UHGV virus genome: UHGV-0320987
From: a virus
Length of the DNA stretch: 29,459 nt
Strand: one strand, 5' to 3'
Below, piece after piece: positions 5,465-7,934 of the stretch. Position 1 is the first letter of the stretch, and each line of letters begins with the position of its first letter. The notes below the pieces were generated by a model, which was not told the DNA's origin, did not search any database, and saw nothing but the letters and a program-made list of their open reading frames with translations. A program made the position numbers and the translations under genes.

Positions 5465-5568
5465 GTTAAATCTCCAGATAGTCGCAGCACCCGTTGCGCC
5501 GCATATCTGGTTATTCTATTACCCAAAAAACCATATATGGATAGAAAGACTGTGAATATGAATAGATA

Positions 5569-5583
5569 TTACCTTTCAGGTAA
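5569..5583. promoter_or_regulatory. Operator-like palindrome TTACCTTTCAGGTAA (copy 1)
   Basis: Perfect TTACC-N5-GGTAA inverted repeat in the divergent tailspike / Ant-C-paralogue intergenic region; identical to the copy at 25214. Confidence 0.6.
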
Positions 5584-5620
5584 TTTGCAAAACGTGCTGG
5601 ATAGCAAACAAATTATTTGC

Positions 5621-5640: not shown

Positions 5641-5660
5641 ATTGCATGGAGAAGATTAAG

Positions 5661-5918
5661 ATGCAGCAGTATCACTATCCACTGGAAGACGGATTTACCG
5701 AAAGGATTCACACGCCGGGAGGCGTCAGGTCACTGGTGGAGGGATCGCACTTGATGAAATTACTCCGGGATCTCGATAAGGATGGATTTAATGTCGATGG
5801 CCCACTTGCTGAACTGACTGCACTGATTAACTACGTCACCAGCTCACAGATGTCTATGCGGGATCTGCAAACACATCTCGACTATTGTGCCGAACAATTA
5901 CGAAAACAAACCACATAA
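5661..5918 (+). CDS. Free-standing paralogue of the antirepressor C-terminal domain (candidate SOS-inducible small antirepressor)
   Basis: About 45 percent identity over about 60 aa with the C-terminus of the antirepressor at 7066-7761 (IHTPGGV.SL.E.S.LM.LL..L..DG..V.G..AELT...Y......RD.QTH..Y). Start taken at ATG 5661 (GGAGAAG 8 nt upstream); ATG 5646 is the alternative. Confidence 0.6.
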   Translation: MQQYHYPLEDGFTERIHTPGGVRSLVEGSHLMKLLRDLDKDGFNVDGPLAELTALINYVTSSQMSMRDLQTHLDYCAEQLRKQTT

Positions 5919-5940
5919 AAAAAAGGCCGCAAGAGCGGCC
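5917..5940 (-). terminator. Intrinsic terminator of the zinc-ribbon gene (weaker in the plus direction)
   Basis: GGCCGC-AAGA-GCGGCC hairpin (5925-5940) overlapping the TAG stop; an 8-nt A-run on the plus strand gives a U8 tract for the minus-strand transcript. Confidence 0.7.
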
Positions 5941-6668
5941 TATCGTTTCGCTTTGTGCTCGTCCCAGCACGTTTTGCACCATGCCATTAAGCCGTCCGCA
6001 TTTTGATTATTAGAGTAAAAGCTGGTGCGTTTTCTGCGGACATTACAAATTGGGCACCACTTCATATGGCGTGTATTCTTTGGGCCATCGAGACACCTTG
6101 CACACCACTTAGTCAATCCATCTGGATTTTTTGACGATTTCCTGAATTTTTCATATGGAAGGTTTATTCTGCATCGCAAACACTGCTTACTACCACTTGA
6201 AACTCTGTTAGCTGATTCTTCTTGTGATGGCGATACAGAAGGTATTCTTGCTGGCTCAGATACTACCTGAGGAGCTTTTTTAGGTAACTGAGACGATATG
6301 TCATCACCTGGGAATCTGTCATGATATGCCGGACGCGTTGACACTCCAGGTGGAAGCTCTGCTGTAAATGGCTTTGGCTGAATCAGCGCCCTCTCTTTTG
6401 CTGACTCCTGTTGTTTATAATATGTCTGGATTACCGATATATCATAAGCAGGATGTACTGAAATATCCGGCGCATTACCTCCAGTTTTTTGAAACTGAGT
6501 GGAGGTGTGGTCTATCACCTGTGTACGATTAATCGTTATTTCTCCATCTTCGGTCTTTATCGTTTTGCGATGATTAACGACTGTGCGATCAGAGACCTTA
6601 GTCCTGTTCTGGTTGATAACGTAAATAATCACCGTAACAACACCAACAACTATCCAGAAAACTTCCAT
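5940..6668 (-). CDS. Membrane-anchored protein with a C-terminal double zinc-ribbon (four CxxC pairs); function unknown
   Basis: 242 aa; N-terminal TM helix (FWIVVGVVTVIIYVI); T/Q/P/S-rich linker; C-terminus CLRC..WCARC..WCPIC..WCKTC with an internal repeat (NPDGLTKWCARC / NADGLMAWCKTC); GAGGA 6 nt upstream of the ATG. Confidence 0.65.
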   Translation of the reverse strand: MEVFWIVVGVVTVIIYVINQNRTKVSDRTVVNHRKTIKTEDGEITINRTQVIDHTSTQFQKTGGNAPDISVHPAYDISVIQTYYKQQESAKERALIQPKPFTAELPPGVSTRPAYHDRFPGDDISSQLPKKAPQVVSEPARIPSVSPSQEESANRVSSGSKQCLRCRINLPYEKFRKSSKNPDGLTKWCARCLDGPKNTRHMKWCPICNVRRKRTSFYSNNQNADGLMAWCKTCWDEHKAKR

Positions 6669-6688
6669 TGCTTTTCCTCACAATAACA

Positions 6689-6703
6689 TTACCTTAAAGG
6701 TAA
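6689..6703. promoter_or_regulatory. Operator-like palindrome TTACCTTAAAGGTAA (copy 2)
   Basis: Part of a perfect 17-bp palindrome ATTACCTTAAAGGTAAT, 21 bp upstream of the zinc-ribbon gene start codon, i.e. over its core promoter. Confidence 0.6.
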
Positions 6704-6781
6704 TATCTTGCTTTCAGGTGATCAAGCGTTAAACGCAATCAACCAAATACGGTTGATTTTAATATTTCTCCGCGTTTATCA

Positions 6782-6796
6782 TTACCTTTTCGGTAA
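6782..6796. promoter_or_regulatory. Operator-like palindrome TTACCTTTTCGGTAA (copy 3)
   Basis: Perfect TTACC-N5-GGTAA in the zinc-ribbon / ant divergent region, 79 bp from copy 2. Confidence 0.55.
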
Positions 6797-6888
6797 ATTT
6801 ACATCGCACTCCTCTTGTGCCATAGTAATCGGGCACTGGCAAAATCCAGTGCCGGGATTGGCGTCCCGGATTACTAAAAGGCGCATTC

Positions 6889-6908
6889 ACCGCGCAAGCG
6901 GTTTTTTT
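6889..6908 (+). terminator. Terminator-like hairpin upstream of ant (possible attenuator or 3' end of a small RNA)
   Basis: ACCGC-GCAA-GCGGT (GNRA loop) followed by T6-7; preceded by further hairpins (GCACTGG..CCAGTGC 6833-6852) in a region without a credible ORF. Confidence 0.4.
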
Positions 6909-7065
6909 ATGCGTATAGCACGGCCACATTCGTATTATGGTGGGCTGTGTGGGGGCACCGAAAGGTGCGCCGGGTCCTTTTAGCCGGTTACGCCAACCCT
7001 GCACAGTTCACCACCAACCGATTGGCGTCGGTAGTGGTGATTGACCAGACTAAAAGGTAACCACT

Positions 7066-7761
7066 ATGACAGCTACAAAAAGCACGTCCATTTTTTCTTT
7101 CGAATCCCAAGCCGATATACGAGTAATCGTCATTAATGGTGAGCCATGGTTTATCGCTTCAGATGTTTGTCGGGCTATAGGCATAGCAAACCATCGAGAT
7201 GCTGTTCGAAAACTTGATGATGATGAGAAGGGCGTCGCTTCAACCGACACCCCTGGCGGTGAGCAAGAATCGATCATCATCTCCGAGTCAGGCCTCTACA
7301 CACTGATCCTCCGCTGCCGCGACGCAGTGACACCAGGCACTATCCCCTACCGCTTTCGTAAATGGGTTACAGGTGAGGTTCTTCCTCAGATCCGCCGCAC
7401 CGGAAGTTACATTAAAAACTCGCTCCCGCAGGAAGAACGCATAAAGATGGTTGCCGACCAGGTTGCAAACGCCACAGCATCAGCAGTGATGCAGGCAATG
7501 AAGATAGAGAACAAAACCTACAGCGCCCCACTGAAGCCCGGCTACCGTAGCCTGATTCATTCGCCGTCTGGTGTTCTCGGCCTGACGGAGAACTCACTGC
7601 TGATGAATCTGCTGAACCAGTTACAGGAAGACGGGCATGACGTATCGGGCGCGGCGGCGGAACTGACCACCATGTTCTGCTACATCGTTGGTGTGAGCAA
7701 ATGCCTGCGTGATATCCAGACTCACGCGGAGTACATCAACGACAAAGCAGGATTCTTCTGA
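7066..7761 (+). CDS. Phage antirepressor (Bro-N/KilA-N-like N-terminal domain plus Ant C-terminal domain)
   Basis: N-terminus IRVIVINGEPWFIASDVCRAIGIANHRDAVRKLDDDEKGV is the Bro-N/AntA-type domain; the C-terminal domain is paralogous to the 5661-5918 product; AAAGG about 9 nt upstream of the ATG. Confidence 0.75.
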   Translation: MTATKSTSIFSFESQADIRVIVINGEPWFIASDVCRAIGIANHRDAVRKLDDDEKGVASTDTPGGEQESIIISESGLYTLILRCRDAVTPGTIPYRFRKWVTGEVLPQIRRTGSYIKNSLPQEERIKMVADQVANATASAVMQAMKIENKTYSAPLKPGYRSLIHSPSGVLGLTENSLLMNLLNQLQEDGHDVSGAAAELTTMFCYIVGVSKCLRDIQTHAEYINDKAGFF

Positions 7762-7788: not shown

Positions 7789-7934
7789 AAATAATTCTGT
7801 ACAGATTGCAGACTGTGGGTGAATAGCGTACTATTACCTTACGGGTGATCCATAGCGATTAGGCACCGATACAGGAGGAGCCCACATGAGAAAATTTGAC
7901 GAGTACGAAGGCGTTTAACATTCGGATAGTTCAT

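Follow-up and report, generated by a model that had tools for sequence, protein, structure and literature searches.

The stretch of viral DNA analysed here, UHGV virus genome UHGV-0320987 (29,459 nucleotides; hereafter the window), holds a gene for a Bro-N anti-repressor, ant, whose ATG is at 7066; only short open reading frames (ORFs) separate it from a divergent ORF on the minus strand (5940-6668). The DNA in between carries, on the ant strand, a predicted promoter, a small RNA that is recognised by the Rfam models of both isrK and c4-a1b1, and an antisense RNA of the C4 family. The region is 98-99% identical to phages TL-2011b and phiV10, whose records label the counterpart of ant as an anti-repressor, and 100% identical to the chromosome of E. 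coli O166:H15. In our assessment positions 6780-7761 are probably an RNA switch of the P1 immI type, serving the anti-repressor gene of an epsilon15-like (Uetakevirus) prophage. The features that make up this locus, in coordinates of the window, are as follows.

6780-6798, no strand assigned: operator-like palindrome CATTACCTTTTCGGTAAAT, abutting the -35 hexamer of the IsrK promoter (repeat search and motif count)
6798-6826, plus strand: predicted sigma-70 promoter of IsrK, with -35 TTTACA (6798-6803), a 17-nt spacer containing TG (6818-6819) and -10 CATAGT (6821-6826)
6833-6908, plus strand: IsrK / c4-a1b1 small RNA of 76 nt, consisting of hairpin 1 (6833-6852), hairpin 2 (6853-6868), a single-stranded spacer and an intrinsic terminator
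6856-6865, plus strand: a1, GATTGGCGTC, the same sequence as a2, lying in the hairpin 2 loop and complementary to a'
6873-6881, plus strand: b1, ACTAAAAGG, an exact repeat of b2, complementary to b'
6889-6908, plus strand: intrinsic terminator of IsrK, a 5-bp stem ACCGC/GCGGT with GCAA loop and T7 (terminator scan and fold)
6933-7018, plus strand: C4 antisense RNA, the match including short flanks (Rfam RF01695, 77.7 bits against a threshold of 45, model positions 1-87)
6976-6983, plus strand: b', CCTTTTAG, loop of the inner hairpin of C4
6990-6997, plus strand: a', ACGCCAAC, single-stranded joint of C4
7020-7029, plus strand: a2, GATTGGCGTC, in the ant leader; counterpart of the annotated a2 of P1
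7049-7057, plus strand: b2, ACTAAAAGG, covering the ant Shine-Dalgarno AAAGG (7053-7057), 8 nt before the ATG
7066-7761, plus strand: ant, Bro-N anti-repressor of 231 aa, the regulated gene (Pfam Bro-N, E = 2.3e-21; PHROG anti-repressor Ant, E = 3.7e-63)

An Rfam scan of the whole window gave three matches above threshold, namely isrK, C4 and one tRNA elsewhere; it found no isrJ anywhere in the window. The isrK match (RF01394) covers 6833-6908 and model positions 1-77 with 77.9 bits against a threshold of 50 (E = 2.6e-15), and the Gifsy-1 isrK prototype scores 79.3 bits on the same model. Because this match spans 6833-6908, the hairpin that a preliminary description of the DNA had picked out as a GNRA-loop terminator upstream of ant is the terminator of an IsrK-type RNA. 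Its parts are all where they had been placed: ACCGC at 6889-6893, GCAA at 6894-6897, GCGGT at 6898-6902 and a run of seven T at 6902-6908. Minimum free energy and centroid folds, together with the terminator scan, give the isrK architecture of two 5' hairpins followed by an intrinsic terminator with a U-tail, and hairpin 1 shows compensatory changes in 5 of 6 pairs. Members of the isrK family are further expected to bind Hfq and to accumulate at about 77 nt. Folding also bears out the stable hairpins that had been claimed, since 6833-6908 forms three of them at -28 kcal/mol (z = -2.4); the whole leader, 6833-7080, reaches z = -4.35, and these z-scores and the isrK match mark the segment as structured beyond chance.

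In a permissive scan c4-a1b1 (RF03163) matched 6820-6872, overlapping the first two isrK hairpins, with 45.1 bits and E = 2.8e-10. Weinberg et al. (2010) described this motif as a pair of hairpins that precedes c4 and includes a1, b1 following at once on the 3' side. Here there are likewise two hairpins, a1 lies in the loop of the second, b1 follows immediately 3', and both are complementary to the C4 downstream. The phiV10 copy, 1 nt different, is in the alignment of that paper (NC_007804.2/20476-20424), and the same alignments also hold the phiV10 C4 (NC_007804.2 20363-20278) and a Salmonella LT2 locus that is Gifsy-1 isrK. At every locus that we compared the isrK and c4-a1b1 models match the same two hairpins; P1 passes the c4-a1b1 threshold (51 bits) and fails that of isrK (35.1 bits), whereas this window passes isrK and fails c4-a1b1. 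RF01394 and RF03163 describe one element, and isrK is absent from clan CL00128, so that both families are reported for it.

The C4 RNA, which begins 25 nt 3' of IsrK and was overlooked in the preliminary description, has the long outer stem around two hairpins that defines its family, with covarying stems, b' in the loop of the inner hairpin and a' in the single-stranded joint. From its alignment to the annotated 77-nt C4 of P1, the mature RNA would be 6939-7015, again 77 nt. The P1 C4 is cut out of a precursor, its 5' end being made by RNase P. A repeat search found the GATTGGCGTC repeats to be complementary to C4 6990-6999 and the ACTAAAAGG repeats to C4 6976-6983, and, as is characteristic of the C4 family, a2 and b2 lie downstream on the same transcript, over the ribosome site of its first gene. 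The estimate that about 270 bp before ant lack a credible ORF was sound: some 268 bp separate the operator copy at 6780-6798 from the ATG at 7066, and their ORFs are short and non-conserved. A non-coding segment had been drawn at 6800-6910. It is real, and its downstream bound is right as a terminator, but the RNA would start only near 6833, 6798-6826 being its promoter, and the non-coding DNA does not end at the terminator, since C4 (6933-7018) and the ant leader come after it.

Judged by sequence, the promoter-like site at 6798-6826 lies directly 5' of IsrK, with ant downstream, and we infer transcription to start at G6833. The resulting gap of 6 nt between the -10 hexamer and hairpin 1 is the same in P1 (annotated P1c4/P51b) and in Gifsy-1 (TATATT-cccagt-A), and is kept in related Uetakevirus loci. 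The palindrome beside this promoter has a second copy at 6687-6705, before the divergent ORF, and its motif, CATTACCTTnnnGGTAA, occurs at 6 distinct sites in the whole window against 0.14 expected. Sites of the form (C/T)ATTACCTTnnnGGTAA are found at 5567-5585, 6687-6705, 6780-6796, 7832-7848, 25212-25228 and 25832-25848, several of them overlapping promoter-like hexamers (a TTGACA at 25193-25198 just 5' of the 25212 site, and a TATAAT overlapping the 25832 site). They have the look of operators spread over the window and recall the 22 C1 operators dispersed in P1 (PMC8546580); the palindrome at 6780-6798 takes the position that the C1 operator Oc4 has at the c4 promoter of P1. Two minus-strand Rfam matches at 6662-6798, lysM-TM7 (E = 0.26) and CRISPR-DR57 (E = 0.51), were set aside as noise over the operator palindromes.

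The proposed interaction sites were compared across 21 loci, this one and 20 others from Uetakeviruses, Stx phages, SfV, APSE-2, Yersinia and Klebsiella phages, P1 and Gifsy-1. In all 21, C4 follows isrK or c4-a1b1 about 100 nt on, and the next gene is either of the anti-repressor type or the first in its operon. From locus to locus the a and b sites change together as matched triplets, in 8 a-types and 18 b-types; the a1/a'/a2 triplet is GATTGACCTC / AGGTCAA / GATTGACCTC in APSE-2 and GATTAGCACC / GTGCTAA / GATTAGCACC in JLK-2012, and the b-site triplet of HEMP4 is CTAAGTGG / CCACTTAG / CTAAGTGG. Over 19 loci a1·a' is 99.2% paired, with compensatory changes at 5 of 7 pairs, none of 500 shuffles as good and slid controls at no more than 53%. 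The a'·a2 interaction is 97.7% paired, again with compensatory changes at 5 of 7 pairs and 0/500 shuffles as good, and each of the seven minority a' types matches solely its own a1 and a2. Because the b loops differ in length and fall out of register, pair counts from a MAFFT alignment were replaced for this site by an alignment-free comparison of cognate with non-cognate duplex energies. For b'·b1 the means are -11.3 (cognate) and -4.2 kcal/mol (non-cognate), the cognate partner being best in 20 of the 21 loci; for b'·b2 they are -12.2 and -5.9 kcal/mol, with the cognate best in 13. Matched triplets that covary in this way argue that the RNA-RNA contacts are under selection, and triplet covariation is, in our view, the strongest evidence short of experiment for such contacts.

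These data bear directly on a rival account of the locus, an ordinary rho-independent terminator or insulator without any regulatory role for the RNA. Such an account would agree with the phiV10 record, which has only a "putative rho-independent terminator" here, and with RefSeq, which has nothing. It leaves unexplained both the full-length matches to two RNA families and the three-way covariation of the interaction sites. Moreover, since the preceding gene points the other way, the promoter 60 nt upstream is the only source of a plus-strand transcript that could be terminated here. We regard this account as very improbable.

The mechanism that we consider likely is one in which C4 masks the ribosome site of ant and terminated IsrK is a decoy that releases it, that is, an anti-antisense RNA. 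Transcription would start near 6833 from the promoter at 6798-6826, beside the operator palindrome, where a bound repressor would set promoter activity. Most transcripts would end at the weak terminator (6889-6908) to give the 76-nt IsrK / c4-a1b1 RNA, and those that read through would run via C4 (mature at about 6939-7015) into ant. There a' and b' of C4 would pair with a2 and b2 in the ant leader, hiding the Shine-Dalgarno, so that ant would not be translated. IsrK would compete for C4, either as part of the precursor (in cis) or, once terminated, in trans, because a1 and b1 lie nearer each other than the leader sites do and have the more extensive complementarity to C4. Its pairing with the middle region of C4 is nearly continuous, and the duplex there is calculated at -36.8 kcal/mol for IsrK versus -26.8 for the ant leader. 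An excess of IsrK would free the ant ribosome site, and the terminator would set the ratio of decoy to repressor plus target. Competition of a1/b1 with a2/b2 for C4 was proposed by Citron & Schuster, as quoted in the supplement of Weinberg et al. (2010). What the present comparison establishes is that the RNAs belong to their families, that the locus is collinear with P1 and Gifsy-1, and that its complementary sites covary three ways; that C4 would repress Ant is carried over from experiments in P1, and that IsrK would activate in trans from experiments in Gifsy-1. The earlier suggestion of a small RNA or attenuator controlling ant is thereby kept as to the element, a non-coding small RNA with its terminator, but changed as to its role: 6833-6908 carries copies of the target sites, a1 and b1, and is not the antisense repressor.

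The terminator itself is conserved in form. All 20 non-P1 loci have a short hairpin of -7.2 to -9.0 kcal/mol followed by a U-run of 6-7; across the 21 homologous loci the stems show covariation and the T-run persists, but the loops vary, and the GCAA loop, though present here, is found only in the clade of this phage, so that the GNRA loop stressed in the preliminary description is not a conserved feature. P1 shows no single terminator stem in its fold and has the arms CCGCA/UGCGG with a 12-nt loop between them, then U5. RNAalifold applied to IsrK alone missed the terminator; because the terminator stems were misaligned in the alignment, each sequence was folded separately. In Gifsy-1 the same terminator yields the short IsrK and partial read-through (PMC4825925). 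A stem this weak fits partial read-through, which is needed for making C4 and ant mRNA, and in that loose sense alone the attenuator idea stands: a leaky IsrK terminator must be passed to make C4 and the ant message. A leader-peptide attenuator or riboswitch was rejected as a candidate, there being no conserved ORF across the 21 loci and no cis-regulatory Rfam match above noise.

Two further helices involve the terminator. In the read-through RNA, 6881-6886 (GCGCAU, just after b1) pairs with 6909-6914 (AUGCGU, just after the T-run), enclosing the terminator; comparable helices of 5-9 bp occur in 20 of the 21 loci, P1 included, in about five covarying sequence types, and could be a processing site or a stabiliser. 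In addition, an alternative 4-bp hairpin, 6881-6884/6892-6895, draws on the final base of b1, on two from the 5' arm of the terminator and on the GC within its GCAA loop, and is a possible anti-terminator candidate. The analogous hairpins of the 20 non-P1 loci include GCGC/GCGC, GGCG/CGCC, CGCG/CGCG, GAGC/GCUC and GGCA/UGCC.

This alternative hairpin invites comparison with phage P4, whose CI/seqA/seqC system likewise has one leader transcript with a processed small RNA flanked on both sides by complementary sites. P4 CI acts by premature transcription termination and not by masking of a ribosome site. By analogy, C4 bound to nascent b1 might decide here between the terminator and the alternative hairpin, and would thus feed back on read-through into itself and ant, which is compatible with masking of the ant ribosome site by C4. 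What speaks for such control is a hairpin of 4-6 bp that links the 3' edge of b1 with the 5' arm and the loop of the terminator, present in 20/20 non-P1 loci in several covarying types, and Hershko-Shalev et al. consider it possible that termination in Gifsy-1 is modulated by STnc1160 (PMC4825925). However, shuffle controls for the alternative hairpin are weak (from 2/200 up to 166/200), it overlaps the terminator arm by just 1-2 nt in most loci, and constitutive STnc1160 did not lower the effect of IsrK in Gifsy-1 (PMC4825925). Its 5' strand is also that of the conserved helix with the sequence after the T-run, which may be the reason for its conservation. We think control of this kind doubtful.

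The experimental precedent for IsrK is the Gifsy-1 locus isrK-orf45/STnc1160-anrP-isrJ (Hershko-Shalev et al. 2016, PMC4825925). There the isrK promoter gives a terminated short IsrK and a translationally silent read-through isrK-orf45-anrP mRNA; IsrK supplied in trans raises anrP translation more than 100-fold, which IsrK-G28A and IsrK-G31A are unable to do; and a stable processed RNA, STnc1160, lies downstream of IsrK. Its authors liken the system to P4 seqA/CI and term IsrK a structural homologue of P4 seqA (PMC4825925). We found that the orf45/STnc1160 region (34131-34316 of the Gifsy-1 sequence compared, minus strand) is a full-length C4 RNA match of 69 bits. When numbered from the start site, G28 and G31 lie in the a1 loop AUUGGCGU and C159 and C162 in a' (ACGCCAA), so that the published compensatory pairs G28/C162 and G31/C159 fall exactly on a1·a' pairs, and A107, with which the first orf45 AUG begins, is the A in AUGGUGGG, the 5' arm of the C4 outer stem. 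By this correspondence, the a1·a' pairing (together with b1·b') is what was published for Gifsy-1 as "helix b-I", and a C4 RNA is what lies at orf45/STnc1160. By the same numbering the window has G28 at 6860, G31 at 6863, C159 at 6991 and C162 at 6994.

The two loci share a three-hairpin RNA with its own promoter and a leaky intrinsic terminator (promoter and leakiness both predicted here), the identical a1 loop, and a C4-family RNA about 25 nt downstream, followed by an anti-repressor gene with b2 over its Shine-Dalgarno. They differ in b specificity (CUAAAAGG here, UCACCG in Gifsy-1), in isrJ, present in Gifsy-1 and lacking here, and in setting: this is a podovirus with the module beside the tail-spike gene and not beside the Q antiterminator, and operator palindromes flank its promoter. 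They also differ in the small ORF, which in Gifsy-1 is the 45-aa orf45 with an ATGA overlap and here is a 35-aa ORF (6937-7044) whose AUG lies in the C4 5' arm and which ends 21 nt before the ant ATG. As a counterpart of orf45 this ORF was rejected as a conserved gene, and it has no Pfam match; among the 21 loci the ORF from the conserved C4 AUG runs from 8 to more than 190 codons with shifting frame and stop, and only Gifsy-1 has the ATGA overlap.

The small ORF matters for a cis switch of the kind published for Gifsy-1 (PMC4825925), in which a1 and b1 would pair with the C4 region within the read-through mRNA (structure A) to give a silent fold, and IsrK in trans would open this fold, so that the ORF at 6937-7044 would be translated and ribosomes would reach ant by coupling. 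The placement of its AUG (+105 from the predicted start here, +107 in Gifsy-1) agrees with that model, as does the centroid fold of the leader, in which a1/b1 pair in cis with a'/b'. However, the ORF is not conserved among the loci, stops 21 nt short of the ant ATG with no ATGA overlap and has no recognisable Shine-Dalgarno, and C4 processing, by alignment to P1, would cut its AUG between AU and G. Because the ORF from the C4 AUG varies in length, frame and stop, coupling through it is not expected in this phage. In Gifsy-1 itself the double mutants that restore a1·a' remain derepressed, at 224 and 327 units versus 4 in the wild type (Table 1D, PMC4825925), as would be expected if an uncompensated a'·a2 represses, as in P1. 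We hold the cis switch to be unlikely in this phage, though less so than termination control by C4.

Several points nevertheless weigh against masking by C4 with IsrK as decoy. Single a1 mutations in cis derepress Gifsy-1 anrP, to 93 and 218 units versus 4 (PMC4825925), which a pure decoy model does not predict, and the authors invoke a cis structural switch with translational coupling through orf45, not masking of the anrP ribosome site by C4 (PMC4825925). At the present locus the c4-a1b1 match misses its gathering threshold of 46.7 by 1.6 bits, and single-sequence duplex statistics are moderate (2/1000 and 28/1000 shuffles). Finally, the start site, the processing of C4, the efficiency of termination and the identity of the operator-binding protein are all inferred for this phage.

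The precedent for C4 itself is P1 immI, for which we relied on the GenBank annotation (NC_005856), the supplement of Weinberg et al. and reviews. The P1 record gives the order Oc4, P1c4, a1, b1, 77-nt C4, a2, b2, icd, collinear with this locus, and immI as a whole reads Oc4-P1c4-a1 b1-c4-a2 b2-icd-ant1/ant2, P7 immI being named alongside it (Citron & Schuster 1990). Spacing is nearly the same throughout: a1 is offset from the predicted start by +23 here and +25 in P1, b1 by +40 and +39, a2 directly follows C4 in both, and the end of b2 is 8 nt from the first ATG here and 10 nt (icd) in P1. Both have a 77-nt C4 (predicted here) and an operator at the promoter (operator-like here). In contrast to P1, where icd comes first and ant is expressed through it, ant itself stands right after b2 in this phage; the spacer from b1 to c4, which in P1 has a long-loop hairpin and U5, is here a compact terminator with U7; and all a and b sequences differ, as does the operator, whose sequence is unrelated to that of the P1 C1 operator.

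The preliminary description had looked instead to P22, by analogy with antisense control of ant. P22 immI does resemble this locus in that its regulated gene is an anti-repressor, controlled by RNA pairing at the ribosome site. The P22 sar RNA is a perfectly complementary cis-antisense RNA from the opposite strand, and the P22 system includes the Arc and Mnt repressors; none of this has a counterpart here. A sar-like RNA across the ant start would have to come from the minus strand, and nothing beyond control of an ant gene in both systems favours one. Every element and all conserved structure lie on the plus (ant) strand, no minus-strand promoter-like site faces the ant start, the sole minus-strand terminator-like match is weak, and there is no arc/mnt context. 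Rfam matches in 6650-7150 at E up to 1 are isrK, C4 and c4-a1b1, the only strong ones, and the two noise matches over the palindromes, with no sar-type match among them. We give a sar-like RNA almost no credence; P1/P7 immI (c4-icd-ant) and Gifsy-1 isrK-STnc1160-anrP are the right precedents, and P22 is the wrong one.

Some neighbouring features deserve mention. Over 78 residues, a 90-aa ORF at 5646-5918 (plus strand; phrog_450) matches the C-terminal portion of the Bro-N Ant with 44% identity (E = 1e-17); it is a free-standing copy of the Ant C-terminal domain with an operator palindrome in front. The divergent ORF at 5940-6668 encodes 242 aa, with an N-terminus that is apparently hydrophobic (judged by eye from the translation) and a Cys-rich C-terminus with weak endonuclease VII, Lar-like and Stc1 zinc-finger matches; its counterpart is absent in phiV10 and a mere misc_feature in TL-2011b. 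A phage-borne tRNA-Arg (anticodon TCT) lies at 25551-25627 on the plus strand, between two of the operator-like palindromes.

It is important to note that the element as such is not new: Rfam has families for both RNAs, Weinberg et al. had aligned the phiV10 copy by 2010, and experiments have dissected a homologue. This work is consolidation, not discovery, and what it adds is modest: it equates IsrK explicitly with the a1b1 leader of a c4 module, places the Gifsy-1 mutants on a1·a' and shows orf45 to be non-conserved. The comparison nonetheless joins two literatures, on IsrK and on c4, that have been treated separately in the searchable papers. Within that literature the name c4-a1b1 occurs in the original paper only, and a 2025 review covers IsrK and c4 in adjacent paragraphs without linking them.

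A more speculative extension, on which we place little weight, is that IsrK is not just a by-product of the c4 leader but a specificity-coded decoy, with output set by C4, and that the a/b code decides cross-derepression among prophages residing together. C4 on nascent b1 could in that case disrupt the alternative hairpin and favour termination, closing a P4-like feedback loop. If this is true, a two-site code, of at least 8 a-types and 18 b-types among the 21 loci, governs whose anti-repressors co-resident prophages derepress.

A megablast search with 6770-7070 gave matches in 941 of 5,426 complete E. coli genomes, 454 of them covering at least 80% of the query; about one in six complete E. 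coli genomes has such a module. RefSeq annotation there shows the Bro-N gene only and no RNA genes, and GenBank phage records are blank or give a terminator. Correct labelling of this 230-bp region would identify the anti-repressor switch of epsilon15-like prophages.

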